Source: Escherichia phage vB_Eco_SLUR29. Taken from it: a stretch of 48,466 nt of DNA. The translations under genes and the position numbers were made by a program. The stretch is taken from the sequence record NC_054895.1; one strand, given 5' to 3'. The notes below the pieces were generated by a model. That model had not been told where the DNA came from, did no database searches, and was given only the letters and a program-made list of their open reading frames with translations. Each line of letters opens with the position of its first letter. Within the stretch, counting starts at the first letter, position 1. Below, in pieces: positions 4,204 through 21,707 of this stretch.

Positions 4204-4222
4204 TTTTAACAAAAAGTGCTAT
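4204..4222 (-). promoter_or_regulatory. conserved early element, minus-strand copy, with stem-loop AGGGCA/TGCCCT
   Basis: reverse complement exact 19-mer followed by hairpin with TGGTAAAGT in loop; precedes gene 3934..4146. Confidence 0.55.
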
Positions 4223-4512
4223 TAGCTCAGATAGTAAAGCTCATCGCGCGCGAAGTCGTCAAAATCTCGCTGTGTCAGCGGTCGATCCTCTCGCGCCGCT
4301 TCCTCTATCATATTGATCAAAAAATCGTTCATCGCCCCTAGTCCGCCATCCGGCATATAGCAAGCTGCGAAAGCTCGCGCCCATGAACGAGCATTTTTGA
4401 ATCCGGCGCGCTTCATTGTGACTGGCGAGTGTTTAGAGTCGTTCCACTTGTTACACTGAGCGATGTTTTCAAAAGCGTTAACCAGTAGTTTGCGGTAAGT
4501 TTTGTTTGCCAT
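4222..4512 (-). CDS. hypothetical protein (96 aa)
   Basis: ORF with AAGGGG SD. Confidence 0.55.
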   Translation of the reverse strand: MANKTYRKLLVNAFENIAQCNKWNDSKHSPVTMKRAGFKNARSWARAFAACYMPDGGLGAMNDFLINMIEEAAREDRPLTQRDFDDFARDELYYLS

Positions 4513-4523
4513 TTCAGATCCCC

Positions 4524-4706
4524 TTATTTTTGTTTAAGCCCCATCAGCATCTTGCGAACGCCATCCTTTTTCCCGTCAGAGTAGCCAGCAATCGAACCAG
4601 CGGCAAACATCATCAAGTTGCCCCAAAAGGCCATAATGCCCTCATAGTTAATGGTTAAATGACTGCCGAAAAGGATCAGGAAAAGAATAATAATACCAGT
4701 TTTCAT
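4524..4706 (-). CDS. small membrane protein (60 aa, MKTGIIILFLILF...)
   Basis: two hydrophobic segments; GAGG SD. Confidence 0.5.
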   Translation of the reverse strand: MKTGIIILFLILFGSHLTINYEGIMAFWGNLMMFAAGSIAGYSDGKKDGVRKMLMGLKQK

Positions 4707-4713
4707 TTTAACC

Positions 4714-4962
4714 TCAGTAACAATCATTAACGTGAATCAGCACGGAAAAACGACACTTGCGTAAGCGGTGGCGCTTCTTGACGTACATATAAGCATCGCT
4801 GTAATACTTAAATTCAGTGGCAATGATGCCGAAAAAGTCGTCTGTAACATAGTGCCAATTGCCTCCTAAGCTGCGTCGCTGCACATGATAAGTAGAACAG
4901 TCTCGGCAAAATACGATCCGGTATTCCGGCTTAAACAGTCGTTTCAATGCGTTAAAAACCAT
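4714..4962 (-). CDS. hypothetical Cys-containing protein (82 aa)
   Basis: ORF with GAGGG SD; CRDC and additional Cys residues suggest possible metal binding. Confidence 0.5.
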   Translation of the reverse strand: MVFNALKRLFKPEYRIVFCRDCSTYHVQRRSLGGNWHYVTDDFFGIIATEFKYYSDAYMYVKKRHRLRKCRFSVLIHVNDCY

Positions 4963-5061
4963 AGTAGCGCCCTCATGCTATAAAGAAAAAGTAGCATTGA
5001 TAATACCGCAATCATTGCGGAATGAAAATCAAAAGGTGGCTTAGGATTCGTTGCGTTATTG

Positions 5062-5442
5062 TTATTTCCCAGCATTGCGCGCGATCCTCTTGTAACCATA
5101 GTAGAAATCATCGCCTACGCCACGGAATTTTAACGCGTTACGCGCCAGGCGGCGGATTCGACGATTATCCAGTTTGCCGTAATTGGTTGGCGCTTTAATC
5201 GTCTTGATTGGGCAGCCGCGATGGTTAGTGATTTGCTTGAGGGTAGCAACAATACCATCAAGCGAACGGATAGCGAAGCCGCCGAATCCAAGATCTTTAT
5301 TGATTAGATAGCCATTGATGCCAGGGATTCCGAATCTTTTGCTATCAACCTTAACAATCTGGCCCTTCTTCATTCCGCTATCTGGAATTGCGTAAGTAAC
5401 TAAGAATTTAGTGCCGACGCGAATTTTTCTGATGTTAACCAT
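5062..5442 (-). CDS. hypothetical protein (126 aa)
   Basis: ORF with AGAGGA SD. Confidence 0.55.
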   Translation of the reverse strand: MVNIRKIRVGTKFLVTYAIPDSGMKKGQIVKVDSKRFGIPGINGYLINKDLGFGGFAIRSLDGIVATLKQITNHRGCPIKTIKAPTNYGKLDNRRIRRLARNALKFRGVGDDFYYGYKRIARNAGK

Positions 5443-5512
5443 TGTGATTTCCTCTTGATTGTTGATGTGCGCATTATAGCGGGGCCGATAACCCCGCGTT
5501 TAGCAATTCGTG

Positions 5513-6103
5513 CTATTTAATCTGTGTGTGCTTCCATTTGACAGTATTGACGATCTCGTTTACAGCCAGTTCCGGCTTGCCGTCCTGCAAGTGGAAGTCA
5601 TAGTGATGGATTCGATAGTGATAACCGCTCAGGTCAATGTAGTCTCTCGAATCGCCAGCAAACGTGAAGCCGTCGCGATGCAATCGGCAAATATGCACTT
5701 CATGCCCTGCCTTAACAAGCGGCTTGATTTCTTCGGGGAATCCGCCATCACTGATTACAACCGCCAAATCTCGGTACATCTCGTGAATCTCTTCAACCAT
5801 TCGACGCCCGAAATACTGCTCCCCAAAAACTGGCTTCATTACATCCTCACTAATCCAGATCATGAATTGTCGAGGTGACTTGCCGCCTAAGATAACTTGA
5901 GGCTTTTCTTTTTGCTCTCGGTCGTTGTACAGGTCCATAAATTCATCGTATCGGTACACGCCCAGCATAGAAAAAGCAATATCGAACATCGACTGTTTGA
6001 ATGACGCCTTGACCGCTGGGTAACGATGGCCCGTTAGGTAAGCTGCAATAGTGTCCTTCCCGCAACCTGGCGGCCCATTAAGGATGATAATGTCTCGTTT
6101 CAT
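5513..6103 (-). CDS. P-loop kinase, possibly deoxynucleoside monophosphate kinase-like
   Basis: Walker A LNGPPGCGKDT at N-terminus; size and GKDT motif resemble phage dNMP kinases; GGAG SD. Confidence 0.55.
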   Translation of the reverse strand: MKRDIIILNGPPGCGKDTIAAYLTGHRYPAVKASFKQSMFDIAFSMLGVYRYDEFMDLYNDREQKEKPQVILGGKSPRQFMIWISEDVMKPVFGEQYFGRRMVEEIHEMYRDLAVVISDGGFPEEIKPLVKAGHEVHICRLHRDGFTFAGDSRDYIDLSGYHYRIHHYDFHLQDGKPELAVNEIVNTVKWKHTQIK

Positions 6104-6761: not shown

Positions 6762-6817
6762 GATTTAATCCTCGTTTGTTGTTTATGGGCTTACTATACC
6801 GCAAGCCCGATAATCTG

Positions 6818-6836
6818 TTTTTGCAAAAAGTGCTAT
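6818..6836 (-). promoter_or_regulatory. degenerate minus-strand copy of 19-mer element with stem-loop GGGCTT/AAGCCC
   Basis: reverse complement ATAGCACTTTTTGCAAAAA; TATAGT in loop; ACAACAAACGAGGA leader; contains TAG stop of lipoprotein gene. Confidence 0.5.
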
Positions 6837-7597: not shown

Positions 7598-7625
7598 ATT
7601 ATAAAAGCTATTTGGTGCGTGTCAA
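7598..7625 (-). promoter_or_regulatory. sigma70-type promoter (TTGACA-16-TATAAT) for leftward early operon
   Basis: minus-strand TTGACA at 7625..7620 and TATAAT at 7603..7598 with 16-nt spacer, about 30 nt upstream of ATG 7569. Confidence 0.6.
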
Positions 7626-7708
7626 TGTTTTTGTTGTATTCAAAACGTTACCAATATCGAAAAACTACAAAATCATGCGCAAGTTATTGATTTCGCGGCT
7701 GTTATTTT

Positions 7709-7910
7709 TCTGTTCACTCTGTTAACGCAATCCGCCGGAAAAAGTATATATACATATGCAATCCGCCGCGCGCGCAACTATCCATATATACCCACACACA
7801 ACCACACCATAACCAACAAAAAGCACTGTAACAGTGAGAACAAAAAGAAAACATTATAGATATATATAAATAAATAATCTTTATTTTCAATGTATTATAG
7901 AGGATTTTCT
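7709..7910. repeat. non-coding module R1 (paralogous to 28996..29200)
   Basis: shared ordered blocks GTTATTTTTCT, CGCCGG, TATATACATA, ACAACCACA, AAATAAATAA with the second divergent control region. Confidence 0.5.
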
Positions 7911-8059
7911 TTGTTTTTTCCGTTTTCGCTACACCGGAAAACCGCGCGGAAACACGCCGCCTGAAATCGGTAACAGGGGTGAACAAAAGACAACAACCAC
8001 TGACAGCCAGGCGGAAAAGTGAGGCAAGAGGGGAAGGTTTCACTATCTCCCCTGCAACC

Positions 8060-8157
8060 AATGATTAAACGTGATTACTTTTCTCATCAAATTTGCAAAG
8101 GCAATCATCATTTTGACGTGATTTGATTACGAATGATTACTTTTGATTATTTCGATC
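8060..8157. repeat. helically phased GATTA(C) direct repeats (iteron-like)
   Basis: five or more GATTA(A/C/T) copies at about 10-bp phasing (near 8063, 8073, 8128, 8138, 8147). Confidence 0.4.
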
Positions 8158-8180
8158 GCAATCCTGGCGATAACCGTCAA

Positions 8181-8199
8181 ATAGCACTTTTTGTTAAAA
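8181..8199 (+). promoter_or_regulatory. conserved 19-bp early element ATAGCACTTTTTGTTAAAA, copy 1 (PeSL-like)
   Basis: exact 19-mer; -10-like TACATT 22 nt after TTGTTA; CATCGAAACGAAC leader; precedes gene 8265. Confidence 0.6.
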
Positions 8200-8264
8200 C
8201 TCAGGCCACCTGATCGGGTACATTACACACATCGAAACGAACCGCACTTACTGAGGACCAAACA

Positions 8265-8567
8265 ATGATTAACATGAACCTGTTCACCGCTAAAGACCAC
8301 GAGAATATGGCAGCACTGGCTGACCTGTTCGAAACAGCAGAAATGGCTGAACTGTTCATGACTGAGCATGAATTCCAGGACGGCATCAGCAATGCCATTG
8401 AAACAAATTTTGGCGACGCTCGCGTTACTGGTGCAATGTTTGCAAATATCGCGCGTAAATTCTTCCAGGCTTACCGCGACGCTCGCCATGTAAAGGGCAC
8501 GTTTGGATCTGCGAAAGACACCGCTGAAACTATCCGCGCTTACATTGAGCGCCACGCAAAACAATAA
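8265..8567 (+). CDS. hypothetical early protein (100 aa)
   Basis: ORF with GAGGA SD; TAA stop abuts next 19-mer element. Confidence 0.6.
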   Translation: MINMNLFTAKDHENMAALADLFETAEMAELFMTEHEFQDGISNAIETNFGDARVTGAMFANIARKFFQAYRDARHVKGTFGSAKDTAETIRAYIERHAKQ

Positions 8568-8586
8568 ATAGCACTTTTTGTTAAAA
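8568..8586 (+). promoter_or_regulatory. conserved 19-bp early element, copy 2, with stem-loop GGGATAAC/GTTATCCC
   Basis: exact 19-mer; inverted repeat with TGGTATAGT (extended -10-like) in loop; CATCGAAACGAAC leader. Confidence 0.6.
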
Positions 8587-8646
8587 GCTGATCGGGATAA
8601 CCTGGTATAGTTATCCCATCGAAACGAACCGCTCAGGAGATAGTAA

Positions 8647-8919
8647 ATGAACATCAGCAAAACCACTTTCAGTTTCGCTAAGCGTCACGGTCTGGATCTG
8701 ACTGTTGAAGATTTTGGCGATGTTCTGCAACTCTGCATTTGGGAAGCAGATAACGATTGCGAGTGGCTTTGCTCTTATCGTATCAACTACGATTGCTTGA
8801 CCTGGCACGGCAATATCTATCTGCCGCAAGAAGTGAAAGAAGAGTTGCCAGCGACTATCAACAACGAGGTTTTCTTGCGCCAGGTGCTGAAATTTATCAG
8901 CAAGGAGATCAAGAAGTAA
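8647..8919 (+). CDS. hypothetical early protein (90 aa)
   Basis: ORF with AGGAGA SD. Confidence 0.6.
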   Translation: MNISKTTFSFAKRHGLDLTVEDFGDVLQLCIWEADNDCEWLCSYRINYDCLTWHGNIYLPQEVKEELPATINNEVFLRQVLKFISKEIKK

Positions 8920-9872: not shown

Positions 9873-9891
9873 ATAGCACTTTTTGTTAAAA
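9873..9891 (+). promoter_or_regulatory. conserved 19-bp early element, copy 3, with stem-loop GATGCGCT/AGCGCATC
   Basis: exact 19-mer; TGGTATAGT in loop 22 nt after TTGTTA. Confidence 0.6.
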
Positions 9892-9947
9892 ACGATGCGC
9901 TGCTGATTGGTATAGTAAGCGCATCGACAACAAACGAGGATTTAAAG

Positions 9948-10145
9948 ATGGAAAATCAGGTTGATGTTAAAGTTGTTAAGCGCGACAAGTCTCACGAAAA
10001 AGGTTTGTTTAAGAAAGGTGCTGAAATCACCATTGACCTTGATGATATGGAGGCGTACCACTCAGGGCTAACTTGGAACGTTCGCAAATGTGAAAACGGC
10101 CTGTTCAAGTTAAATGGCTTTGAAACATACATGGAGATCATTTAA
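9948..10145 (+). CDS. hypothetical protein (65 aa)
   Basis: ORF with GAGGA SD. Confidence 0.55.
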   Translation: MENQVDVKVVKRDKSHEKGLFKKGAEITIDLDDMEAYHSGLTWNVRKCENGLFKLNGFETYMEII

Positions 10146-11358: not shown

Positions 11359-12075
11359 ATGACGATGTATAAAGGTTTAATATTCTCCCTATTTGATGGA
11401 TCTGGTAAAGCCGTTAAAGATTGGGCTGATAATGGCTATAAGTGCATTTGCTTTAATGCTGACGGCGGCGATCACGGTGATTACCAGTCAGTGCGCATAC
11501 AGCATGAGAATATCGAATACGTTAACGTCTGGATTGATGAAAGATTTTACCACCGCGCGCGCTGGGAGGAATGGGGCATTCCTGACTTTATTATGGCATT
11601 TCCGCCGTGCACTGACCTTGCAAATAGCGGATCTCGCCATTGGGCCAAAAAACGCCTTGAGAATCCATCTTTCCAGGATGAGGCCGCCGACACTTGCAGG
11701 ATCGCGGCTGATATAGCTGATTATTTCGGTGTTCCTTACATGATCGAAAATCCGGTTGGCAAGTTGTCAACGTTATGGCGAAAGCCTGATTATACGTTCC
11801 ATCCGTGCGATTACGCTGGCTATCTGCCGGAAGATGATAAACATCCCGACTTCCCTGATATTATTCCGGCGCGGGATCGCTATTTTAAGAAAACATGCCT
11901 CTGGACTGGCAACGGCTTTGTTATTCCTCCACGCGCTTTAATCCTGCCGAAAGAGAAAGACAAAGATAATCCAGGCTGGGCCAAAACTGGCGGCAAGTCA
12001 TCGCGCACAAAGATGATCCGCTCCCTCACTCCGCGCGGCTTTGCTCGCGCCGTCTTTGAGTCAAACTCAAAATAG
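11359..12075 (+). CDS. DNA (cytosine-5)-methyltransferase-like
   Basis: motif I FSLFDGSG, PPC catalytic-Cys motif (FPPCTDL), ENP/ENV-like motif (MIENPVGK); TAG stop lies inside next 19-mer element. Confidence 0.65.
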   Translation: MTMYKGLIFSLFDGSGKAVKDWADNGYKCICFNADGGDHGDYQSVRIQHENIEYVNVWIDERFYHRARWEEWGIPDFIMAFPPCTDLANSGSRHWAKKRLENPSFQDEAADTCRIAADIADYFGVPYMIENPVGKLSTLWRKPDYTFHPCDYAGYLPEDDKHPDFPDIIPARDRYFKKTCLWTGNGFVIPPRALILPKEKDKDNPGWAKTGGKSSRTKMIRSLTPRGFARAVFESNSK

Positions 12076-12090
12076 CACTTTTTGTTAAAA
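12072..12090 (+). promoter_or_regulatory. conserved 19-bp early element, copy 4, with stem-loop GCCAGGT/ACCTGGC
   Basis: exact 19-mer containing stop codon of upstream gene; TGGCATAAT 22 nt after TTGTTA. Confidence 0.6.
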
Positions 12091-12144
12091 GCCAGGTGTA
12101 AAAACCTGGCATAATCACATCGAACAAACAAAGGAGATCTGATC

Positions 12145-12749: not shown

Positions 12750-12764
12750 CACTTTTTGACAAAA
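12746..12764 (+). promoter_or_regulatory. conserved early element, copy 5 (TTGACA variant), with stem-loop GGGCCGT/ACGGCCC
   Basis: ATAGCACTTTTTGACAAAA; TAAAAT in loop; precedes P-loop NTPase gene. Confidence 0.6.
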
Positions 12765-12817: not shown

Positions 12818-14398
12818 ATGTTTTCATTAGAAACGAACAAATTAACTCCACAGCAAATAATCGCTATGGCTGAAAGCCAGAACCTTTCACCAGTTCGCGT
12901 ATCAATTCAGGCTAACGGCTATCGCCAGTCGTCCAGCTTTTGGGGCGACGTAAAGGATGTGAATAGCGGTCACGATCGCTACCCCGTTATTTCTCTTGGT
13001 AATGATATTGATGTTGTCGGCAAGTTATCACGCAGCATTGCGCGATCCGTTCAATTCCCTGAATCATCGGCTTACATGCACTTTATCGGCTGCATTTCTG
13101 CCGCTATGCTTGGACGCTTTACGGTTGACTATCACGGAACCGATCAGCCGACTGCGCTTTACGTCGTTACAAGCCAGCCGCCGTCAACTGGTAAATCTGC
13201 GATCAACAGCATGGCTATTGCTCCGATGATTGCGGAAGTTGAGAAGATCAACGAGCAACGCCGCAAGGAAAGAAAGAAAATACAGGCAAAGCTGGCAGGT
13301 CTTGCAAAGGAGATGAAAAGCGAAAGATCCGGCGCTGATATGGAATCTCTATACCAGGAAAAAGAGGATCTGGAGGAAAAGCTGGAAAAAATGTGTGATA
13401 TAACTTTTCCTGTTTCAGATACAACTCCAGAAGGCTTGGCGAAAATCAACAACAAGCAAGGTAACTTTGCCGTAATTTCTGATGAAGCAACAAGTATTAA
13501 CAGTCTGTTAGGTTTGACCTATGCAAATAGCGAAAGGAAGACTAACAGTGAGTTAGTGCTTAAGGCGTGGGATAATGGTCACGTATCAATTGCCCGTGCT
13601 AATGCTGACAATAATATGAGTTTTCGCGCGCTTGGATGTATGAGCGTTATAGCCCAGGATGAAACGATAAGCGGAATCATGGACGCTGGATCGCGAGGCA
13701 TCGGTGTTAGTGAGCGTTTTTTGTTGGTCCGCGAGGAATCATTCTTAGGCCGTCGCTCATTCATTGATGAAAATGGTGATTCTACCTATGAGGCGGTGGA
13801 TTCTGAATTGAAAGCCCAATATTATCAATTGGTGCATAACATCATGAGCGAATCAAATATATCGCTGAAAATAAGCCGTTCAGCTATGCGAGTGCTCAAC
13901 ATTGCTCGCCAGGATATGGAACCGCATCTTGCAGACGGCGGAAAGTATTCTCATACAATGTTACGCGGTGCGCTTGGTAAAATGGATAAACAGGTGATCA
14001 GGCTTGCTTCCGTCCTGCATGTTATCCGTAACTGGTTTAATCCTGCCGGATACCCGCAGAAGTCGAAAGAGATCGACGTGGAAACAATGCAAGAGGCGTT
14101 GATCATGTTTCAGGAATTGAGCAAAACATACATTAGCGCCGCCAATGCTTCTGGTTATGCTGGTGATGATGCTGAAATGGGTAAATTGATTGAATTGATC
14201 ACGAGGCACGGCAAGGCTAACAAAGGGATCCTGAATATTCGCGCCCTGTACGAATCAGCGAGAAAGGTAAAACCTTTCGTTGGTCAGGCTGGCGTAATGA
14301 AAAGGATAGAAGGGCACTTACTGCCAATGCTGGAAGAAAGAAATTATGTTTGTGTGATTAATGGTGTTATTTTTGTCAATCCAATACTGCTGGGATGA
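12818..14398 (+). CDS. P-loop NTPase of unknown function (526 aa)
   Basis: Walker A-like PPSTGKSA and Walker B-like FAVISDEA; strong SD; function not assignable by eye. Confidence 0.7.
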   Translation: MFSLETNKLTPQQIIAMAESQNLSPVRVSIQANGYRQSSSFWGDVKDVNSGHDRYPVISLGNDIDVVGKLSRSIARSVQFPESSAYMHFIGCISAAMLGRFTVDYHGTDQPTALYVVTSQPPSTGKSAINSMAIAPMIAEVEKINEQRRKERKKIQAKLAGLAKEMKSERSGADMESLYQEKEDLEEKLEKMCDITFPVSDTTPEGLAKINNKQGNFAVISDEATSINSLLGLTYANSERKTNSELVLKAWDNGHVSIARANADNNMSFRALGCMSVIAQDETISGIMDAGSRGIGVSERFLLVREESFLGRRSFIDENGDSTYEAVDSELKAQYYQLVHNIMSESNISLKISRSAMRVLNIARQDMEPHLADGGKYSHTMLRGALGKMDKQVIRLASVLHVIRNWFNPAGYPQKSKEIDVETMQEALIMFQELSKTYISAANASGYAGDDAEMGKLIELITRHGKANKGILNIRALYESARKVKPFVGQAGVMKRIEGHLLPMLEERNYVCVINGVIFVNPILLG

Positions 14399-14790: not shown

Positions 14791-14911
14791 GGATTTTATT
14801 CATGCTTTACTTACGCTACTTTATTCAGATATGCGCGCTTTTAGCACCACTGAACATGTTTTATGCAATGATGATGGTGTATTACTGGTTACGGTAAAGC
14901 GTATGGAATAG
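14717..14911 (+). CDS. possible overlapping small ORF (64 aa)
   Basis: GGGGAGA SD 6 nt before ATG; TAG stop is the TAG of the next 19-mer element, as for other cassette-terminal genes. Confidence 0.3.
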   Translation: MMNCSRQKLIDKILKHCAVNSISHEDFIHALLTLLYSDMRAFSTTEHVLCNDDGVLLVTVKRME

Positions 14912-14926
14912 CATTTTTTGTTAAAA
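14908..14926 (+). promoter_or_regulatory. conserved early element, copy 6 (ATAGCATTTTTTGTTAAAA), stem-loop CCCGGC/GTCGGG
   Basis: near-exact 19-mer; TATATT after hairpin; CATCGAAACGAAAC leader; inverted duplicate of copy at 18151..18169. Confidence 0.6.
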
Positions 14927-14988
14927 CGCCCGGCCTAGTGTCGGGTATATTTGTTTCATCGAAACGAAACAACCAAAAAGGAAAAATT

Positions 14989-15213
14989 ATGTCCAGCAAG
15001 TTTTTAGTAGTTCGCGTATACAATCATGCAAATGGATCTTCTTCTGAAATCCCGACAGTTTACGATAAGGATTCAGGCTGGAGTGAGCAATCGGCGGTTG
15101 AAAATGAGCGCAAGATTGCAGGACTATACGGCGACACTTGCAGCATTGAAGTAAGGAAGTACGACGAATCGAACAAGCCAACAAACGAAAGCCATATGTG
15201 GCCCGACGCATAA
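14989..15213 (+). CDS. hypothetical protein (74 aa, MSSKFLVV...)
   Basis: ATG at 14989 after A-rich leader. Confidence 0.5.
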   Translation: MSSKFLVVRVYNHANGSSSEIPTVYDKDSGWSEQSAVENERKIAGLYGDTCSIEVRKYDESNKPTNESHMWPDA

Positions 15214-16471: not shown

Positions 16472-17587
16472 TCAATTCATCATTTCTGGATAGTGAACAA
16501 ATCGCCCCACTTCTCCATGCTCTTTGTCGTAAATGATAACCGCCGCACGGCGTCGAGATCTCCAGCCACCTCGCGCGGCGTATGCGTCTTTTGCAGCCAG
16601 GGTGCTATGCACCTCAACGATGCCAAGCGACGTTTCTGTCACGGTCTGGTGATGCCAGTGCCCTACGTGCGCATACATCGTTTTTGAGTTTCCGAAGTCC
16701 TCCCGCCAATCTGACGCGCACATCATTAGCAAAGTCTCCGGTTTACGCACTGTGTGCCCGTGATGGTACGCAAGGAAAGTTTTTCCGTATTGCGTGTGGT
16801 GCACAACGCGAGGGGAAACATCAACGTAAACGCGCGGCTCGTTTTCATATGCTGCCGCCATTGCTGCGCGTAGCCAAATCATTCCTGATTGGTCATGATT
16901 GCCCTCTACGATCTGGACTTCAACATGTTTATGCTTTAACAACATTTTATTGATTGCGCGTCGCATTGCACGGATGGCAACGTAAACCAATTTTGCATAT
17001 CGACTATCTTGATCCAGTACGTGACCGCTTGCAGGTGTAACCGCCTCCAGGCCGTCGCTATGCAGCATATCGCCACCAATCAGGATGACAGCCTTTTCGC
17101 TATCCGGTGCGCACATTAAAGCATAGTCGATAAAGTTATTCATAACGCGCTCTGCCGTGGCAGTATCCCAATTTTCGCCGCATTCGTGCTTATGGGCCAT
17201 AGCGCCTAAGTGCATGTCAAAGATCGGATACAAGGAAAGCGTTTCGTTATAGTCGCGCTCCTGTAATGGGACCGGATCTAATCGCGGAACTTCCTCGCTA
17301 AATGCCTCCATTGCTGCGCGCATTAATGCTTCTAATTGCTCTTTATCCTTGCTGGTTTTAGTCCACTTTAGGATTATGTTGCCTTCTTTGTCAGTCATTA
17401 CTGACTCACCATGAACGCCAAAACCAGGCGCTCCAATGGTGGATACCTGGCCTTGCTTTGCAAGACGCGCCGCGCGACGCTCGACGCTTCTCACATTCAT
17501 TCCGTACTCTTGAGCGATCTGTTTATATGTCTTACCAGCCGCCCGTTCGATCTTGAATTGCTCATCTGTAATTTTTACATTTTTCAT
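16472..17587 (-). CDS. calcineurin-like metallophosphoesterase with N-terminal HTH domain
   Basis: motifs DMHLG, GGDMLHSDG, GNHD, GHWHH; N-terminal HTH-like KTYKQIAQEYGMNVRSVERRAARLAKQ; start taken at internal ATG 17587. Confidence 0.65.
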   Translation of the reverse strand: MKNVKITDEQFKIERAAGKTYKQIAQEYGMNVRSVERRAARLAKQGQVSTIGAPGFGVHGESVMTDKEGNIILKWTKTSKDKEQLEALMRAAMEAFSEEVPRLDPVPLQERDYNETLSLYPIFDMHLGAMAHKHECGENWDTATAERVMNNFIDYALMCAPDSEKAVILIGGDMLHSDGLEAVTPASGHVLDQDSRYAKLVYVAIRAMRRAINKMLLKHKHVEVQIVEGNHDQSGMIWLRAAMAAAYENEPRVYVDVSPRVVHHTQYGKTFLAYHHGHTVRKPETLLMMCASDWREDFGNSKTMYAHVGHWHHQTVTETSLGIVEVHSTLAAKDAYAARGGWRSRRRAAVIIYDKEHGEVGRFVHYPEMMN

Positions 17588-17681
17588 TCTGCTACCTATC
17601 TCATCACTATATGGTACATAACTGTAACAGCGATGATAACGGGTAACGGTAGAACAAACAAGCGCCACATGATAACTATCC

Positions 17682-17924
17682 TCATTTATAATATTTGCGA
17701 GGCTCTCGGATTTTAGCCATTGCCTCTTTGAAATCAATTTTTGTTGGAACTGCTGGAACTCTTACCATTTTTCGCGGCCTTTCCTTGAGGAAAGTCATCT
17801 TGTCGCCGCTAATTATGCTCACATCTGCAATATCAAAGTATTGCGCGATCTTCTTTATGTCGTCGGCAATACCGCATTCTTTAGCGTGATTCCATACCGC
17901 ATCTCTTCCTTGCTCAACCTTCAT
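17682..17924 (-). CDS. hypothetical protein (80 aa, MKVEQGRD...)
   Basis: ORF; GAGGAGG upstream; overlaps stop of preceding small ORF. Confidence 0.45.
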   Translation of the reverse strand: MKVEQGRDAVWNHAKECGIADDIKKIAQYFDIADVSIISGDKMTFLKERPRKMVRVPAVPTKIDFKEAMAKIREPRKYYK

Positions 17925-18093
17925 GCTTATAATATGCCTCCTCTTGTTCAATTGGTGCGTGACCGTATGCAACTTTCAGTAAAAACATTGCGATCTCCCA
18001 ATCAAACTGGAATCCTTCCTTTGAACCGCCATCCACTGAACCTTTTGCCACCTCTTGAGCAAGATTAAAAGCGCGTTTATCGAATACTACCAT
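17914..18093 (-). CDS. small hypothetical protein (59 aa, MVVFDKRAFN...)
   Basis: GAGGA SD; first ORF downstream of 19-mer element at 18151. Confidence 0.4.
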   Translation of the reverse strand: MVVFDKRAFNLAQEVAKGSVDGGSKEGFQFDWEIAMFLLKVAYGHAPIEQEEAYYKHEG

Positions 18094-18150
18094 TTTTATT
18101 TCCTCATGTTTGTTTCGTTGAAATAATTATGCCCGACACTAGGCCGGGCG

Positions 18151-18169
18151 TTTTAACAAAAAGTGCTAT
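18151..18169 (-). promoter_or_regulatory. conserved early element, minus-strand copy; inverted duplicate of copy 6
   Basis: reverse complement is ATAGCACTTTTTGTTAAAA followed by identical hairpin CGCCCGGCCTAGTGTCGGG and CATAAT; contains TAG stop of gene 18166..18405. Confidence 0.6.
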
Positions 18170-18405
18170 TTGATCGCTGAATCGTAAAATTCTTGCAGGT
18201 CTTTAGCAATTATTTCATGCCATTTTTCAAGAGGATGTTTTCTAGTTTCCTCAAAACTCATATCCAGGCAGCCGGAAAACTCCCACAAATCGCAATCAAT
18301 ATATGGCTTAACGAACGAATTTTTTTCCATACAGTCGCACACCATAGCGCGATATAAAAGAAATTCGCCATCCTCATTAAGTAAAACGCTTCTCTCTTTT
18401 TCCAT
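18166..18405 (-). CDS. hypothetical protein (80 aa, MEKERSVLL...)
   Basis: GGAG SD; immediately downstream of Dam gene. Confidence 0.45.
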   Translation of the reverse strand: MEKERSVLLNEDGEFLLYRAMVCDCMEKNSFVKPYIDCDLWEFSGCLDMSFEETRKHPLEKWHEIIAKDLQEFYDSAIK

Positions 18406-18409
18406 CGTA

Positions 18410-19135
18410 TTAACTCCGTTTGCGTGCTCGGCGTTCGGTAACAGAAGGACAAATATCGCTGATCTTAACGTATCGCGTTTTCTGCTCTTCGCCTTCTTTA
18501 AGTTTACGCATGACAAAAATCACGCTCCCCTTATTGTTGCCCTGTACAGGCTCGCCAGTCAATCCAGACACAAAGGCGATTCTTCCGGTGCGGGAATATT
18601 CCACTCCCCCCTCTTCGTAAACCTCGCCAGTGATCCAGATGATTTCAGCCGCGTTTTTCTGCGCCTCATAAAACCATGCTGTAGAGTTGTCGGATGGCAA
18701 CAAAACATCAATTTGGTTGTTGTGCTCCATTTGCTCAATTGCTTTCTTGATAAATGGAGTTGGGTTGCTGTACGGCGGGTTAAGCCATACGTGCTTGTTG
18801 CTACCCCACCAACGCTTTAAGCAGTTTGTTTCCTTGCTATAGAACTTCTCGCAAACTGCGTTTTCCTGGCTTGCTGCCGCGTCGAGATCGTATTCGCCAA
18901 ATTCTGATTCCATCCACTCCACGATCTCTTGAGGTGTGCTCCACATATCGCGCACAACGTCCGGCGTAGTGCTTCCAGCGTATCGGTTGCCGCTTACCTT
19001 ATAATATTGATTTGGCTTTACTGCCTGGTAATGGCCTCCAGTTGCAAGGGCATTCCCTATAAATGTTTCTCTCTCCAACTGCTCAAAGCTAACGAATGCG
19101 TCATGGGTGTCTTTATCTAAAATATCTTTAGCCAT
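18410..19135 (-). CDS. dam: DNA N6-adenine methyltransferase (Dam-like)
   Basis: NPPY catalytic motif (WLNPPYS); 241 aa; GGAGA SD. Confidence 0.75.
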   Translation of the reverse strand: MAKDILDKDTHDAFVSFEQLERETFIGNALATGGHYQAVKPNQYYKVSGNRYAGSTTPDVVRDMWSTPQEIVEWMESEFGEYDLDAAASQENAVCEKFYSKETNCLKRWWGSNKHVWLNPPYSNPTPFIKKAIEQMEHNNQIDVLLPSDNSTAWFYEAQKNAAEIIWITGEVYEEGGVEYSRTGRIAFVSGLTGEPVQGNNKGSVIFVMRKLKEGEEQKTRYVKISDICPSVTERRARKRS

Positions 19136-19199
19136 TTCATTTCTCCGCTATTAAAAGCTATCTCGTGTTATTGAATTATGGCGCAATCCATCGCGCCAG

Positions 19200-19218
19200 T
19201 TTTAACAAAAAGTGCTAT
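19200..19218 (-). promoter_or_regulatory. conserved early element, minus-strand copy, with stem-loop GGCGC/GCGCC
   Basis: reverse complement exact 19-mer followed by hairpin and CATAAT; contains TAG stop of 19215..19634; precedes Dam. Confidence 0.6.
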
Positions 19219-19634
19219 TTAAGCATGTATTCAATAGCCAACTTAAACTGATTAAATCCGTAGGCGACCGCAGCGAATCCTCCTAAGCTGCGAACTCGAC
19301 GCAAAAAAGCCCTTTGTTCATCGCTGACTGGTGATGCTTTACCATTGCCTGATTTATTCACTCGTTTGATCTCAATCGCTGCAAATGGGTATTTTCCGTT
19401 TAAACCAATCAGGATGATGAAATCGCTTACACCCTTAACCAAGCCGGACTGCTGATCAATCATCGCCGTTGCTTTAGACTTCTCATTCTCGTTTACCGTA
19501 TGCCACGCCAGCAAGTAAGGATGAGTATAAGTCAACCACTGAAAGCTATCTATCTGGTGATTAACTTCCTTTCTAGTGTCGGTTGGATCTCTTTCGTAAA
19601 ACTCAAGATAATCTCCTTTATCAGTTATAGCCAT
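19215..19634 (-). CDS. VRR-NUC-like PD-(D/E)xK nuclease
   Basis: 139 aa; D...E.K signature (GVSDFIIL...AIEIK); adjacent to helicase as is common for VRR-NUC. Confidence 0.55.
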   Translation of the reverse strand: MAITDKGDYLEFYERDPTDTRKEVNHQIDSFQWLTYTHPYLLAWHTVNENEKSKATAMIDQQSGLVKGVSDFIILIGLNGKYPFAAIEIKRVNKSGNGKASPVSDEQRAFLRRVRSLGGFAAVAYGFNQFKLAIEYMLK

Positions 19635-21631
19635 TAAACAAACTCCCGTTTTGCAATGTTATCCTCACCTTTGCCGTTTTTGCGATGCGTTACGCGTACA
19701 GGCGGCATGATGTGATGAGCGTATGACATTATTTTACGCGCATTTCTATAGCTCGCCACCATACCAGCAATCTTGCGATCCGGTATGTGCTGCAATGCTA
19801 TTTTTCTCCATATCGTCCTGCAAATGTTGCTTTCTGACTCAGGGAAAAATCTTTCGTATGCCTTGAACGTGTCGCCGTTGGCCTCAAGCTCATAGCAAAA
19901 AATAATTCCTTTCTGGTTTTTCGTCATATCAACGCGGAAAGATTTAACGTTGCACCAATCGTTTTTGGTGTAGTGCTTACCGCTTAACTTCTCGTTAGGA
20001 TCGACAAGAGAAATATCGCAACAACGGCATACTCTCGCCACTACGTCGTTTTTTGTTCCGCAACCGCGCTTGATTATCTTTTTCGTTCTCGGATCTACCT
20101 GGTCCTCGCAAATTCTGTAAGTCCAAAAATGCTCACATCGCTTCCCGTTATCGTCTACGTGCATACATCGGCGAGCGTAAAAGCTGTTTAGCGTTCCACA
20201 TATCGGACAAGTCTTAGGCTCTTTCCCGTTTGTAAATCTCTTTTGGAATTGCGCTTGCTCAAGGATTGGATCGAAATACAAATCACCTAACTCATCCATA
20301 GTACCTGCAAAATCCAATACAAGATGATCTTTTTTCTTGAATCCCTGATCAATGTGCCATTGCTTAAGCAGTCGCATGCCGCGCCCCAAAAGCTGGATAA
20401 GCAATGTTAGAGATCCTATCTTTCTCAGTATTACCGAAGTATCCCAAAACGGAACGTTAACGCCAGTGGTAAGCGCCTGTACCTGGAAGATGTATTTTAC
20501 TTTTCCCTCGTATGCCTCCCTCAGCCACTCTTTACGCTGATTATCTCCAGTCTTGCCAGTTATGATCCTGTATTCAACGCCTGGCGGCAGTGCGGCGGCG
20601 GCCTCCTTGCAGTGCCTTTCCCCTGCGCATGTAACTAAAACTCCGTTCCTGTCTTTGCATATCTCATGGACTTTAGCCATGATTTTCTGTGTCATTGTTG
20701 CGTCTTGATGGATCTTTTCTTCCATCTTGCGCAATGTTTTAGCGTCAAAGTCTGAAACGCCATCCTCGCTACTGGCTTCGAACTCTGAAAGGTCATAACC
20801 CAGGTCGCCTACGTCGCCGAAGTTTGTTGGCACTACCGAACCGAATTTGATTAAGTAGTTTGTGTCTATGTTAGTCACCTGCTCACGCCAGAATCCCTTT
20901 TTGTTCTTATCTTCAACCAGTATTGGAACCACGCCGCGAAATTCAGATCCAGTCATACCGAATATTCGCAATTCGTGCCCGTATGCCTCGCGACACCTGC
21001 GCATCATTTCCATGATTATTACGGTGTACTGTGTGCGTCCTGTTCCGAACATTGGATCGCCATTGGAATCAAATTGCTGTTCTTCTCCAATCAGTACTGG
21101 CAAATCCTTCTTAGTGGTCATCTGCTGGTAAGATTCATTATTTTCTATCGCGTCCGCGAGATCCTCCCAATCCACCTGGTGACATTCATCAATACCGATA
21201 ACGTGCGGAACATAATCACCTAACGACTTAAACAATCCGTTTACTACAGTGCCCTCAGAACCGACCACGATCGGAAAGTATGCGCTTTTTGTTTTCAGTC
21301 CGGCGCAATAGATTGAGTTTGGCACTCCAAGATTGCTGATCTCTTCCGAATCCTGATCAACAATTTCAGCCTGGCGAGCAAGGACCATCATTTTCAATCC
21401 CATTTTTCGGCATTGCGCCGCAACCATCGCAAACATCAATGTTTTGCCAGCCGACACAGAAGCCTTAACAAAGAAAGGATGCTCATAGTTTTTCATGCGC
21501 TTTGCGATCTCGGCATACGCAACGCACTGATAAGGATAAGGCACTATATTGCCAACCGTGAATCGCTCTTGGATGCTTTTTATTACTGCCTCGCCTAACG
21601 CTGATATTTGTTTTTCGATATTTGGAATCAT
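19634..21631 (-). CDS. SF2 DNA helicase with C-terminal Zn-finger region
   Basis: Walker A SAGKT, DECH box, multiple CxxC pairs in C-terminal third. Confidence 0.8.
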   Translation of the reverse strand: MIPNIEKQISALGEAVIKSIQERFTVGNIVPYPYQCVAYAEIAKRMKNYEHPFFVKASVSAGKTLMFAMVAAQCRKMGLKMMVLARQAEIVDQDSEEISNLGVPNSIYCAGLKTKSAYFPIVVGSEGTVVNGLFKSLGDYVPHVIGIDECHQVDWEDLADAIENNESYQQMTTKKDLPVLIGEEQQFDSNGDPMFGTGRTQYTVIIMEMMRRCREAYGHELRIFGMTGSEFRGVVPILVEDKNKKGFWREQVTNIDTNYLIKFGSVVPTNFGDVGDLGYDLSEFEASSEDGVSDFDAKTLRKMEEKIHQDATMTQKIMAKVHEICKDRNGVLVTCAGERHCKEAAAALPPGVEYRIITGKTGDNQRKEWLREAYEGKVKYIFQVQALTTGVNVPFWDTSVILRKIGSLTLLIQLLGRGMRLLKQWHIDQGFKKKDHLVLDFAGTMDELGDLYFDPILEQAQFQKRFTNGKEPKTCPICGTLNSFYARRCMHVDDNGKRCEHFWTYRICEDQVDPRTKKIIKRGCGTKNDVVARVCRCCDISLVDPNEKLSGKHYTKNDWCNVKSFRVDMTKNQKGIIFCYELEANGDTFKAYERFFPESESNICRTIWRKIALQHIPDRKIAGMVASYRNARKIMSYAHHIMPPVRVTHRKNGKGEDNIAKREFV

Positions 21632-21639
21632 CTTAAACC

Positions 21640-21668
21640 TTTAAAAAATGCCATTTGGAGTATATAAT
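21640..21668 (+). promoter_or_regulatory. putative sigma70 promoter (TTTAAA-17-TATAAT) for rightward HTH/primase/fiber block
   Basis: hexamers at 21640..21645 and 21663..21668; overlaps face-to-face with minus-strand -10 of the helicase promoter. Confidence 0.4.
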
Positions 21669-21688
21669 AGACTCATTACAATAAACTG

Positions 21689-21707
21689 TTTTAACAAAAA
21701 ATGCTAT
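21689..21707 (-). promoter_or_regulatory. conserved early element, minus-strand copy driving helicase operon
   Basis: reverse complement ATAGCATTTTTTGTTAAAA; TATTAT 22 nt after TTGTTA; about 58 nt upstream of helicase ATG. Confidence 0.55.

Follow-up and report, generated by a model that had tools for sequence, protein, structure and literature searches.

A published intergenic repeat of T1-like phages as the probable mark of a shared class of factor-dependent promoters

Judged from its sequence context, the repeated element described here is most likely the common mark of one class of factor-dependent phage promoters. Specifically, we estimate a probability of about 60% that the analysed DNA carries approximately 13 sigma-70 "middle" promoters, each with an upstream element read by one sequence-specific factor, and that the hairpin is a separate, overlaid signal. 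Each copy would then be the upstream half of a composite promoter for the host sigma-70 RNA polymerase: an element of 18-21 bp, aAATAGCAC-NNN-TTG(C/T)TAAAA, at -52 to -32, a non-conserved spacer of 19 nt, a -10 box (T/C)ATAAT at -12 to -7, usually with G at -14, a presumed C/A start 7 nt further on, and an A/C-rich leader of some 20-30 nt leading to the Shine-Dalgarno sequence and the gene.

The window, that is, the whole analysed stretch of 48,466 nt, comes from a T1-like coliphage with 99.9% identity to Escherichia phage tunus (Drexlerviridae) over positions 17000-22000. The 19-mer singled out in the first-pass annotation is the published, unexplained "T1/TLS intergenic repeat". In T1 it was reportedly noted in 2004, with function unknown. 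The repeat has also been described, again with function unknown, in Stevie (2015) and in TLS (2024). Apart from the genome papers on T1 (2004) and Rtp (2006), the literature was searched for transcript 5' ends determined by experiment, for reporter assays and for binding data, and none were found.

The 19-mer, ATAGCACTTTTTGTTAAAA, occurs on the minus strand at 4222-4204, 6836-6818, 18169-18151, 19218-19200 and 21707-21689, exactly where the first-pass annotation had placed it. Three of these five copies are exact, the copy at 6836-6818 reads TTGCAA instead of TTGTTA, and that at 21707-21689 is a TAGCAT variant. An additional minus-strand copy in the interval 4204-21707, of the GAA subtype and followed by the -10 box TATAAT, had been overlooked (5515-5498). 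At up to three mismatches the window contains 14 copies, vs 0.01 expected from shuffled sequences, and with the relaxed family pattern TAGCACNNNTTGNTAAAA the counts are 16 for the window, 21 for T1 and 20 for TLS. The element, the spacing and the -10 box are found together in T1 (Tunavirinae), TLS and Stevie (Tempevirinae), and KLPN1 (Webervirus). For 13 of the 16 window copies a co-directional start codon lies 71-83 nt downstream of the motif start, and in seven of these 13 the TAG of the motif is the stop codon of the preceding gene. Hence the claim that the orientation of the element follows the direction of the genes holds for these 13 copies, while the remaining three, at 23268-23251 (minus strand), 40078-40095 and 43828-43845 (both plus strand), face away from the adjoining gene. 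Approximately 13 putative transcription units in the window carry the signal, the earlier estimate being at least 11.

To describe the anatomy of the putative promoters, we drew on 35 related sequences, namely the window, T1, TLS and 32 IMG/VR loci, which together yielded 180 unique copies, and defined a -10-like hexamer as one with A at the second and T at the sixth position and at least four of six matches. In 74% of the copies such a hexamer follows the 18-mer at a distance of exactly 19 nt, the background being approximately 2%; the 18-nt spacing accounts for a further 13%, so that 87% of the copies have a spacing of 18 or 19 nt, and the remaining offsets mostly contribute 0-3% each. In the window, the hexamer occurs at the expected offset in 14 of 16 copies, including all five hexamers quoted previously (TAAAGT preceded by TGG, TATAGT, CATAAT, CATAAT and TATTAT), each 19 nt after the 18-mer. 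In the profile of 134 sites, numbered from the predicted start, positions -50 to -32 are nearly invariant, G is found at -14 in 81% of the sites, A at -11 and T at -7 in 100%, and the usual start context is seen at -1 (C, 73%) and +1 (A, 77%), followed by an A-rich leader. The full extended -10 motif TGn is present in about 30% of the copies. No -35 box is seen in this profile, positions -35 to -30 reading AAAAcn, and a generic sigma-70 scan did not call the module sites; the TLS authors list three sigma-70 promoters only in the TLS genome. As the -35 hexamer is missing, the polymerase would presumably depend on a sequence-specific factor that binds the dyad described below.

One could suppose instead that these are constitutive early promoters served by the host sigma-70 polymerase alone, with the 18-mer acting as an UP-like element via the alpha C-terminal domain, and G-14 or TGn compensating for the missing -35 box. 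The good -10 boxes, the frequencies of G-14 (81%) and TGn (about 30%) and the T and A tracts within the element would fit this, and UP-like enhancers are among the options considered in the TLS paper. However, none of the 134 sites deviates at the G, C and A of TAGCAC or at the G of TTG, a specificity the alpha C-terminal domain does not have; the tracts lie at -45 to -32, whereas the UP register is -59 to -38; and the T tract is not a conserved feature, since the middle triplet may be GAA, AAA, TAA or TTT. Thus, we consider purely constitutive promoters unlikely, although the good -10 boxes and the TGn in about 30% of the copies make some activity with the host polymerase only possible.

The core of the 18-mer is an imperfect dyad, TAGCA-N5-TG(C/T)TA, centred at approximately -42; by its sequence, it is the kind of site read by a dimeric DNA-binding protein. 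The position of the dyad centre corresponds to the class II activator geometry known from lambda PRM, CRP class II promoters and the Mor-dependent Pm of phage Mu. It had been claimed that the signal is directional and promoter-type rather than symmetric. Its promoter-type nature is indeed the best supported, given the locked -10 box, the C-1/A+1 context, the leader and the Shine-Dalgarno sequence, but symmetry is present in the core, and the direction derives from the flanks together with the position-locked -10 box rather than from the dyad core.

The leftward modules illustrate this anatomy, and the A/C-rich leader, Shine-Dalgarno sequence and gene reported earlier for the five copies are all there, with 71-83 nt separating the motif start from the start codon. 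The first module (4172-4222) comprises the 18-mer at 4221-4204 and the extended -10 box TGgTAAAGT (hexamer 4184-4179), with the predicted start at ~4172 and a hairpin at 4196-4173 (-14.2 kcal/mol, z -3.4), and precedes a 70-aa ORF (4146-3934). In the overlooked module (5466-5515) the GAA-subtype 18-mer TAGCACGAATTGCTAAAC (5515-5498) is followed by a hairpin (5497-5479; -14.0 kcal/mol, z -2.2), TATAAT at 5478-5473, the predicted start at ~5466 and the ORF 5442-5062. The module at 6786-6836 (18-mer 6835-6818, predicted start ~6786) has its -10 box TATAGT (6798-6793) in the loop of a hairpin (6808-6787; -14.9 kcal/mol, z -4.5), and its TAG is the stop codon of the ORF 7105-6833, the target being an 87-aa ORF (6761-6498). 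At 18119-18169 (18-mer 18168-18151, CATAAT 18131-18126, predicted start ~18119) the hairpin (18149-18131; -13.0 kcal/mol, z -3.2) ends at -12 and shows compensatory stem changes among 24 unique orthologues; the TAG terminates the ORF 18516-18166, and a 59-aa ORF (18093-17914) and, further on, the phosphoesterase gene follow. The next module (19168-19218; 18-mer 19217-19200, CATAAT 19180-19175, predicted start ~19168, hairpin 19198-19179 with -12.1 kcal/mol and z -2.7) has as its TAG the stop codon of the VRR-NUC gene (19634-19215) and precedes the Dam methyltransferase gene (19135-18410). Finally, at 21657-21707, the TAGCAT-variant 18-mer (21706-21689), an AT-rich spacer without a hairpin, TATTAT (21669-21664) and the predicted start at ~21657 precede the helicase gene (21631-19634). 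Dam and the helicase are thus located downstream of minus-strand copies, as noted initially.

The same arrangement is seen in the rightward modules. The first of them (8182-8231; TACATT 8219-8224) has a weak hairpin of 4-5 bp and precedes the ORF 8265-8567. In two modules TGgTATAGT is situated in the hairpin loop: 8569-8618 (hexamer 8606-8611; ORF 8647-8919) and 9874-9923 (hexamer 9911-9916; ORF 9948-10145, Pfam Gp54). The module at 12073-12122 has a hairpin at 12091-12110 and TGgCATAAT (hexamer 12110-12115) before the ORF 12145-12531, and a TTGACA variant at 12747-12799, where the loop of the hairpin 12776-12799 holds TAAAAT (12784-12789), precedes a second helicase gene (12818-14398). The module at 14909-14958 (TATATT 14946-14951; ORF 14989-15213) contains a hairpin (14928-14946) identical in sequence to that at 18149-18131. 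The module at 29285-29333, with the 18-nt spacing to TATAGT (29321-29326), serves a lone lipoprotein-like ORF (29357-29584). A degenerate plus-strand module lies before the primase gene (22180-22240; ATG 22251): CAGCACAAATAGCTAATG at 22180-22197 overlaps the last codons of the regulator gene discussed below, and the -10 box TAATAT (22217-22222) falls within the loop of a terminator hairpin (22203-22231), followed by TTTTTTATT. Its equivalents are better preserved in T1 (35994, minus strand), TLS (35239, minus strand, listed as terminator T57) and KLPN1.

The GC hairpin, which lies between the element and the predicted start, has a mean minimum free energy of -10.7 kcal/mol, vs -4.3 for shuffles (p = 2e-22), and the pairs change in a compensatory manner: G-C in 15 vs C-G in 8 at -16, and C-G in 14, G-C in 4 and A-T in 3 at -15. 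The hairpin was said to accompany all five initially noted copies; this is so for four of them (-12 to -15 kcal/mol, z -2.7 to -4.5), but at the helicase copy (21707-21689) it is absent (-1.9 kcal/mol, z +0.3), nor was it found in 20 unique orthologues. Hairpins downstream of a co-directional ORF are strong, the others weak (-11.6 vs -7.2 kcal/mol, p = 9e-4). As the hairpin is missing where the upstream co-directional gene is missing, this GC hairpin is probably a signal on read-through RNA rather than a component of the promoter.

If, on the contrary, the entire unit were a terminator or an RNA element, the hairpin would serve to terminate or process the transcript arriving from upstream, with the 18-mer as a part of the RNA signal and the "-10" as a mere AT-rich tail. 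The T1 and TLS annotators indeed list several of these hairpins as rho-independent terminators, the stems are conserved by compensation, and the motif begins at the stop codon of the upstream gene. Nevertheless, this is highly improbable: a U-rich tail follows only 17% of the hairpins (in 46% there are at most two T in the next 8 nt), hence most are not canonical terminators; the helicase copy and others retain the 18-mer and the -10 box without a hairpin; A-11 and T-7 are 100% conserved at a fixed offset in any hairpin register; and the unit has no match in Rfam.

The leading candidate for the activating factor is a Cro-like helix-turn-helix regulator of 158 aa, encoded divergently from the helicase module (21719-22195, plus strand) and possibly reading the 18-mer. 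It has a sub-threshold Pfam match to YdaS/P22_Cro, belongs to phrog_2856, shares the Cro fold with Xfaso1 and N15 Cro, and has homologues in 828 phage records. Among approximately 40 early-region proteins scanned against Pfam, it is the only clear DNA-binding protein, besides a sub-threshold helix-turn-helix on the phosphoesterase. Cro proteins bind as dimers to pseudo-palindromic operators. The regulator has its own predicted sigma-70 promoter (21640-21668, plus strand; TTTAAA-17-TATAAT), homologous to P57 of TLS, one of only three sigma-70 promoters listed for that phage. Its -10 box (21663-21668) overlaps that of the helicase module on the opposite strand, and its transcript crosses the 18-mer (21689-21706), placing the element within the mRNA leader. 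A consensus sigma-70 promoter without the 18-mer, TTGACA-16-TATAAT (7598-7625, minus strand), is the probable immediate-early leftward promoter.

The recognition helices of the regulator differ (SQQVVNQW in tunus, SNQTVQGW in T1, NLKTVWGW in TLS and SIQVVQQW in KLPN1), while the DNA element is identical in all four, which speaks against a classical read-out through the helix-turn-helix of this protein; what stays invariant in it are the N-terminal arm, predicted to be disordered, and the C-terminal domain. The invariance of the element across the family could point to a host-determined target. The promoter reading might hold with an exploited host protein as the reader, Lrp being the best lead: its SELEX consensus yAGhAwATTwTdCTr, quoted in PMC5554404, appears to agree with TAGCACTTTTTGCTA at 13 of 15 positions, including both dyad arms, TAGCA and TGCTA, and an invariant element alongside divergence of every phage candidate protein is expected if a conserved host protein fixes the target. 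Yet the phage sites are far stricter than the consensus (T not Y, C not H, G not D, A not R), invariant bases break it (C at -44) or fall outside it (A at -50, AAA at -34 to -32), the copies are single, whereas Lrp sites are normally clustered, and no literature report of an lrp effect on T1-like phages was found. Hence we regard a host reader as very unlikely.

Three reversed copies do not fit a simple activation model. The one at 23251-23268 (minus strand) adjoins the Shine-Dalgarno sequence of the tail-fibre gene (ATG 23287) and has no -10 box at the canonical offset; the same arrangement is seen in T1 (34903, plus strand). The second (40078-40127, plus strand) adjoins the Shine-Dalgarno sequence of the gene for the tape-measure chaperone (40062-39745, minus strand), its -10-like TAGATT (40115-40120) faces a bidirectional terminator (40133-40160), and it is conserved in T1 (18849, minus strand). 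The third (43828-43845, plus strand) lies upstream of the minus-strand gene for the major capsid protein, 48 nt from its start at 43780; read on the minus strand, its end forms an extended -10 box, TGCTATCAT, followed by the terminator GGCCGTTAcattTAACGGCC-TTTTTT and a Shine-Dalgarno sequence, with the counterparts TGCTATTAT in T1 (15085, minus strand) and TGCTATATT in TLS (15041, minus strand).

Binding in the regulator leader and before the tail-fibre and chaperone Shine-Dalgarno sequences could only repress, and Cro-fold proteins are classically repressors. Hence the element could be a negative operator, resembling the stoperators to which it is likened in the Stevie and TLS papers: a phage protein would silence constitutive extended -10 promoters or block upstream elongation, ending early expression. 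However, a repressor site or a roadblock needs no single-base spacing, yet 74% of the copies lie at exactly 19 nt; the element occupies -49 to -32, upstream of the core promoter, where the -35 contacts are missing, which is the position of an activator; and a virulent phage has no prophage to silence. Thus, a role as a negative operator appears quite unlikely.

Under the preferred reading, that of factor-dependent promoters, ordinary sigma-70 promoters (7625-7598 and 28914-28887 on the minus strand, and the regulator promoter at 21640-21668 on the plus strand) would fire first. A phage factor would next activate the approximately 13 "middle" units, to which most of the early and replication genes belong, among them Dam and both helicases. 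The hairpin would be a separate overlaid signal on the upstream read-through RNA (an attenuator, a terminator or a 3' stabiliser), which the module's own transcripts would escape, since their start would lie past the hairpin or within its 3' arm. The repeat itself is not new; its proposed promoter anatomy offers a testable answer to the question of its function.

The segment 17000-22000 of the window is 99.9% identical to Escherichia phage tunus (Drexlerviridae, Tempevirinae, Warwickvirus), and hundreds of matches at lower identity come from T1-like phages whose hosts are Escherichia, Klebsiella, Salmonella, Citrobacter and Shigella. The window phage is a member of the virulent Drexlerviridae. 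In the terminase gene, window positions 1-1569 correspond to tunus 21119-22687, and the segment 17000-22000 is offset from tunus by 24033. These two offsets differ by approximately 2.9 kb, and therefore the window phage either lacks some 2.9 kb of the tunus early-region DNA or carries a replacement.

The five minus-strand copies of the 19-mer ATAGCACTTTTTGTTAAAA listed in the first-pass annotation are all present, at exactly 4204-4222, 6818-6836, 18151-18169, 19200-19218 and 21689-21707. The Dam and helicase genes that it had placed downstream are also found, the tunus annotation giving a DNA N6-adenine methyltransferase at 18410-19135 and an ATP-dependent helicase at 19634-21631, both on the minus strand. 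With at most three mismatches, TAGCACTTTTTGTTAAAAC occurs in the window 14 times (five copies on the minus strand and nine on the plus strand) versus 0.01 in shuffled sequence. A relaxed family pattern, TAGCACNNNTTGNTAAAA, yields 16 copies in the window, 21 in phage T1 and 20 in phage TLS; the two window copies that it adds are 5515-5498 on the minus strand, which is of the GAA subtype and falls within the interval spanned by the original five, and 23268-23251. The original observation is confirmed, with minor corrections.

The repeat itself is already known, and in T1 it was reportedly described by Roberts et al. in 2004 (Virology). The genome announcement of the related phage Stevie (PMC4319613) gives it as VWATAGCAYKWWTTGYTAAAAV, in 16 copies, describes it as asymmetric and as following the direction of transcription, declares its role unknown, and cites 20 copies for T1; the 2024 paper on TLS (PMC11447400) gives aaATAGCACnnnTTGnTAAAA in 21 copies, offers a stoperator, an enhancer or an UP element, and poses the function as a question. 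The window element has the same consensus as this 21-22-bp repeat (ATAGCAC-NNN-TTG-N-TAAAA), the same intergenic position, about 76 nt 5' of start codons, the same orientation with transcription and the same copy number, 16-21 per genome. It fits as a member of the T1-like intergenic repeat, the published consensus and lists agreeing with the pattern counts in the window, T1 and TLS. The mechanism would be a phage promoter class dependent on a bound factor.

The -10-like hexamers quoted for the minus-strand copies are all found, each exactly 19 nt 3' of the 18-mer core of the repeat. We considered this spacing in a family set comprising T1, TLS, KLPN1 (a further T1-like phage) and 32 IMG/VR loci, each with the neighbouring regulator gene at its centre. 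Among 180 unique copies, the hexamer lies exactly 19 nt from the 18-mer in 74% and at 18 nt in 13% (87% together), other offsets mostly accounting for 0-3%. The profile of the 134 copies with this locked -10, numbered from the predicted start, reads aAATAGCAC(T/G)(T/A)(T/A)TTG(C/T)TAAAAc from -52 to -31; the spacer between the element and the -10 is not conserved. The hexamer reads (T/C)ATAAT, its A at -11 and its T at -7 being found in 100% of these copies, and the start context has C at -1 in 73% and A at +1 in 77%, followed by an A-rich leader. As for an extended -10 TG, G is found at -14 in 81% and T at -15 in only 34%; in the copies designated class A the G at -14 also belongs to the hairpin stem. 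Downstream of the minus-strand copies an A/C-rich leader (frequently CATCGAAACGAAC), an SD and a gene follow in the order originally described, the start codon lying 71-83 nt from the motif start. In 7 of the 13 sense copies (those co-directional with the downstream gene) the upstream gene ends with the motif's TAG as its stop codon. One module is predicted to serve a 65-aa ORF (9948-10145, plus strand) matching the Pfam family PF25180, 'Phage antiviral trigger protein Gp54' (E = 2e-38).

In the 134-copy profile no -35 hexamer close to TTGACA is present 16-18 bp 5' of the -10, the positions -35 to -30 being AAAAcn, and a generic sigma-70 scan did not call the element sites. The TTGNTA within the element is 22 bp from the -10 and therefore too far to be the -35 for sigma-70. 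Were it nevertheless a normal -35, the -10 should be sought 17 bp downstream; the hexamers there are poor (TTTGGT, TGCGGT, ATTGGT), and a good -10 is 22 bp off in every copy. A sigma-54 promoter has the consensus TGGCAC-N5-TTGCW, with GG and GC 11 nt apart. The element, TAGCAC-N3-TTG(C/T)TA, has A for the first G, a spacing 2 nt short and TTGT in half of the copies, and the locked -10 would be left unexplained, so that this candidate was rejected. Rfam and tRNA scans gave no match.

The element contains an imperfect dyad, TAGCA (-49 to -45)-N5-TG(C/T)TA (-39 to -35), centred at -42. At class II sigma-70 promoters, such as those of CRP, lambda cI at PRM and Mu Mor at the middle promoter Pm, a good -10 and a poor or absent -35 are combined with a dyad of ~15-19 bp near -42, abutting or overlapping the -35 position; in phage Mu one phage-encoded activator switches on a temporal gene class. 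The motif units have the same layout, and the class II geometry, an activator site centred near -41.5 to -42 and overlapping the -35 region, fits. A good -10, no -35 and a dyad placed at -42 with single-base precision are, as far as sequence can tell, the anatomy of a class II activator-dependent promoter, and not that of a roadblock site or of an UP element; for an UP element alone, the register and the invariant G/C bases are a misfit. There are also differences from the known class II systems: the element is flanked asymmetrically, by AAA on its left and AAAA on its right, and about 13-20 such predicted promoters occur per T1-like genome, unlike the one to four of the class II examples.

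T4 middle promoters likewise are numerous and have one upstream box that replaces the -35, the sigma-70 -10 being kept; they work by the MotA box and by AsiA sigma appropriation, with the box centred at -30, 11-13 bp from the -10. The part TTTGCTAAA of the element resembles the MotA box, (a/t)(a/t)(a/t)TGCTTtA. However, the box here is 22 bp from the -10, that is, ~10 bp or roughly one helical turn further upstream, and Pfam detected no MotA or AsiA domain in the proteins scanned, so a MotA-type middle promoter was rejected. The analogy to mycobacteriophage L5 stoperators, drawn in both PMC4319613 and PMC11447400, is based on a real likeness, as these too are short, repeated, oriented intergenic sites, many per genome. 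Yet L5 stoperators are 13 bp long, lie inside the transcription units of a temperate phage, where the prophage repressor binds them to block elongation, and are not tied to a -10, whereas the sites here are locked to a -10 at 19 nt and the phage is virulent; this candidate was rejected as well, although the three reversed copies described below may still have a repressive role.

Thus, a directional promoter-type signal, as had been proposed, is the best-supported reading. It is only partly supported, because the case is made by sequence statistics and the initial proposal needs corrections. We put the probability that the motif units are promoters at about 0.8, and it is probable, though somewhat less so, that these promoters need a sequence-specific factor. 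The Stevie and TLS papers do not report the locked -10, the missing -35, the dyad at -42, the two-register compensatory hairpins or the reversed late-region copies described below. A literature search on T1-like phages found no transcriptome, start-site or 5'-end study and no binding study, the genome papers of T1 (2004) and Rtp (2006) being outside its reach.

One correction concerns the hairpin, which the first-pass annotation had made a part of every unit. Folding of positions -31 to +3 gives a mean energy of -10.7 kcal/mol versus -4.3 in shuffles (p = 2e-22), and the hairpin is significant in four of the five minus-strand copies (-12 to -15 kcal/mol, z from -2.7 to -4.5), but there is none at the helicase copy (21707-21689, minus strand; z +0.3) or in any of its 20 unique orthologues. 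Weak hairpins are also observed at the first rightward copy (8182) and at the reversed late-region copies. Where present, the hairpin occurs in two registers: its 3' arm ends at -12 in about half of the copies, and in about 37% the -10 is in the loop, the 3' arm then spanning roughly -6 to +5. Orthologues show compensatory stem changes (CCCGG/TCGGG, CCCCG/TGGGG, CCAGG/TCTGG), and therefore the base pairing is under selection; at -16, 15 sequences have a G-C stem pair and 8 have C-G, as counted from the 3' arm, the 5' arms being in differing registers in the pooled alignment A2.

N4-type promoters have a conserved hairpin at a fixed position, needed by a phage-encoded RNA polymerase. Such a promoter, or a cruciform presenting the -10, is unlikely here, given the two registers and the absence of a hairpin at the helicase copy; the annotations of this phage family list no RNA polymerase gene. 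In the window, T1 and TLS, copies at which a co-directional ORF ends at the motif have stronger hairpins than the others (-11.6 vs -7.2 kcal/mol, p = 9e-4). Intrinsic terminators likewise have a GC-rich stem-loop straight after the stop codon, and the T1 and TLS annotations list several of these hairpins as rho-independent terminators, including T57 and T62 of TLS. Unlike intrinsic terminators, most of the hairpins here have no U tract, and a predicted promoter is nested in them or directly behind: 115 of 138 copies have a stem of -7 kcal/mol or lower, but the 8 nt after it contain at least 5 T in only 23/138 and at most 2 T in 64/138. True U tracts are found at the primase and capsid-gene copies, each forming a true terminator with the -10 in its loop or just 5' of its 5' arm. 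The hairpin is not part of every unit. Since it is absent from some units, is stronger after a co-directional ORF and rarely has a U tract, it may be read as a signal on the RNA coming from the upstream gene, a terminator where a U tract follows and otherwise an attenuator or a 3' stabiliser. Transcripts from the -10 of the module itself would begin past the hairpin or within its 3' arm and so would escape it.

Two modules share more than the element. The segments 14909-14946 (plus strand) and 18168-18131 (minus strand) agree in the 18-mer, apart from one mismatch, and fully in the hairpin sequence, GCCCGGCCTAGTGTCGGG. The two make up a 38-nt inverted repeat with ~3.2 kb between its copies, flanking the lysis cassette and a phosphoesterase gene, which suggests that modules have been copied or exchanged as units.

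The second correction concerns orientation, said to follow the direction of the downstream genes. This holds for the 13 sense copies, but three of the 16 point away from the abutting gene: 23268-23251 (minus strand) is directly 5' of the SD of the tail-fibre gene, 40078-40095 (plus strand) is directly 5' of the SD of the tape-measure chaperone gene, and 43828-43845 (plus strand) is 48 nt before the start codon of the capsid gene. The same reversed placements are observed in T1, and that at the capsid gene also in TLS; thus, the reversed copies are conserved across subfamilies. A protein occupying them could act on transcription toward the abutting genes only as an obstacle. At the capsid gene, the end of the reversed element is an extended -10 facing the gene (TGCTATCAT in the window, TGCTATTAT in T1, TGCTATATT in TLS), and there are hints that one site may both activate middle promoters and restrain late ones.

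The capsid-gene region 43780-43850 (minus strand) also contains a true terminator, GGCCGTTAcattTAACGGCC followed by TTTTTT, which ends 3 nt before the SD, and the extended -10 TGCTATCAT gives a predicted transcript start inside the 5' arm of this terminator. The region is a candidate late promoter nested in a terminator. The copy at 40078 is followed by a plausible -10, TAGATT (TAAGAT in T1), with a predicted RNA of ~35 nt in the region 40127-40160 (plus strand), which has the conserved sequence gattttacagRaatgaa... and runs into the bidirectional terminator of the major tail gene. A small antisense RNA is one possible reading, a dead-end promoter another.

Ordinary sigma-70 promoters are few in the window by the sequence scan, and three of them correspond to P01, P51 and P57, the only sigma-70 promoters accepted by the TLS authors (PMC11447400). 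A perfect one (7625-7598, minus strand; TTGACA-16-TATAAT, 12/12) heads the leftward early genes, a second (28914-28887, minus strand; TTGACT-16-TACAAT, 10/12) precedes the exonuclease VIII gene, and a third (21640-21668, plus strand; TTTAAA-17-TATAAT, 10/12) precedes the gene of a 158-aa Cro-like regulator (21719-22195, plus strand), divergent from the helicase module. The -10 hexamers of the regulator promoter (21663-21668) and of the helicase module (21669-21664) overlap on opposite strands, and the predicted regulator transcript crosses the element before the SD. This interlocking supports a cascade, in which host polymerase would first make a few immediate-early products, the regulator among them, and a factor bound to the element would then switch on roughly 13 motif units.

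Two further regions were noted in this context. The promoter at 7625-7598 is at the left edge of a non-coding stretch of ~580 bp (7600-8180) between the divergent early arms, which is AT-rich in places (atatatacatatgcaatccgccg, tatccatatatac), has several repeats that contain GATTAC (gtgattac, tttgattac, aatgattac), and could be a replication origin or another control region. A near-consensus sigma-70 promoter (23101-23129, plus strand; TTGACA-17-GATAAT, 11/12) is situated within the primase gene, at its 3' end; the primase terminator, the reversed repeat and the tail-fibre gene all follow downstream of it.

The Cro-like regulator is the leading candidate for the factor that reads the element, although we regard this assignment as tentative, with somewhat less than even odds. 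The regulator has a Cro-type helix-turn-helix (Pfam YdaS and P22_Cro, both sub-threshold), matches Xfaso1 Cro and N15 Cro in sequence and fold (AlphaFold2 model, pLDDT 85), and occurs in 828 phage records; among ~40 early-region proteins scanned, Pfam detected no other clear DNA-binding protein. It differs from the Mor/C and CRP family activators in having a Cro fold. When regulator and motif were compared across lineages for co-variation, the recognition helix varied (SQQVVNQW in tunus, SNQTVQGW in T1, NLKTVWGW in TLS, SIQVVQQW in KLPN1) while the DNA element is identical in all four, and this counts against the regulator as the reader. What is invariant in the protein is a C-terminal segment and an N-terminal arm modelled with low confidence (DKRxxNGNNGxxRxxD).

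The most conserved part of the regulator is this low-confidence N-terminal segment, DKRTINGNNGTRRGKDKK, within residues 1-40 (21719-21840), and not the helix-turn-helix; D14, R16, N19-G23, R26, D29 and R33 are invariant across 30 diverse homologues. In many homologues the C-terminal ending 'STNS/STNC/STDC' is apparently dictated by the DNA element that overlaps it before the primase gene. Klebsiella phage VLCpiS13c, an outgroup, has no copies of the motif, no other promoter-associated repeat and only an 80-aa helix-turn-helix homologue, and it is uninformative on the reader. Shigella phage 2019SD1 (IMG/VR locus L033) was considered as a regulator carrier devoid of the motif, and was set aside as uninformative because it is an 'UNVERIFIED_ASMBLY' with homopolymer-length errors (ATAGCACTTTTG) and frameshifts, including one in the regulator gene.

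Two other proteins are possible alternative readers, judging by sequence resemblance. One is host Lrp, whose consensus yAGhAwATTwTdCTr (PMC5554404) agrees with the 15-mer of the element at 11-13 of 15 positions, depending on the subtype; the sites are, however, far less variable than this consensus allows. The other is the product of the gene 16475-17587 (minus strand), annotated as 'DNA repair exonuclease / phosphoesterase', which consists of two parts: an N-terminus with a helix-turn-helix like that of sigma-70 region 4 or an ECF sigma (GMNVRSVERRAARLAKQG; Pfam Sigma70_r4_2, E = 0.002, sub-threshold) and a C-terminus with a weak Metallophos domain. Its recognition helix is better conserved than that of the regulator, being fairly conserved in T1, TLS and KLPN1, and the gene itself lies downstream of a predicted motif promoter.

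A more far-reaching possibility, which we consider unlikely, is that one site and one factor run the whole temporal programme of a virulent phage by a nested 'promoter-inside-hairpin' design. The factor, bound at -42, would activate about 13-20 middle promoters; the reversed site in the leaders of three genes (regulator, tail-fibre and tape-measure chaperone) would restrain these, the factor's own gene included, and that of the capsid gene, overlapping the candidate late promoter, would hold back late expression. Each stem-loop would stop or process RNA arriving from upstream, whereas transcripts born in the module, having no 5' arm of the stem-loop, would pass through, and the genome would be a series of about 20 insulated, co-regulated single-gene cassettes. 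In a stronger variant, the element would be read not by the diverged helix-turn-helix of the regulator, but by its invariant disordered N-terminal arm or by a host protein, for example Lrp, that the phage has hijacked.

Besides being abundant and represented in therapy collections, T1-like phages (Drexlerviridae) are notorious as contaminants of laboratories. Their transcription programme has hardly been mapped, the genome papers finding only about three recognisable promoters for roughly 80 genes. The locked -10, the class II position and the replaced -35 provide a concrete model, cheap to test, for the switching on of most early and replication genes; the model names a candidate regulator and flags the evidence against it, and the question on the function of the repeat stated in the TLS paper in 2024 is now directly testable. 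If confirmed, the model would yield a phage-inducible promoter, both compact and portable, for use in E. coli, Klebsiella, Salmonella and Citrobacter, and the 'abundance of terminators' in these genomes would be explained as insulators nested in promoters.
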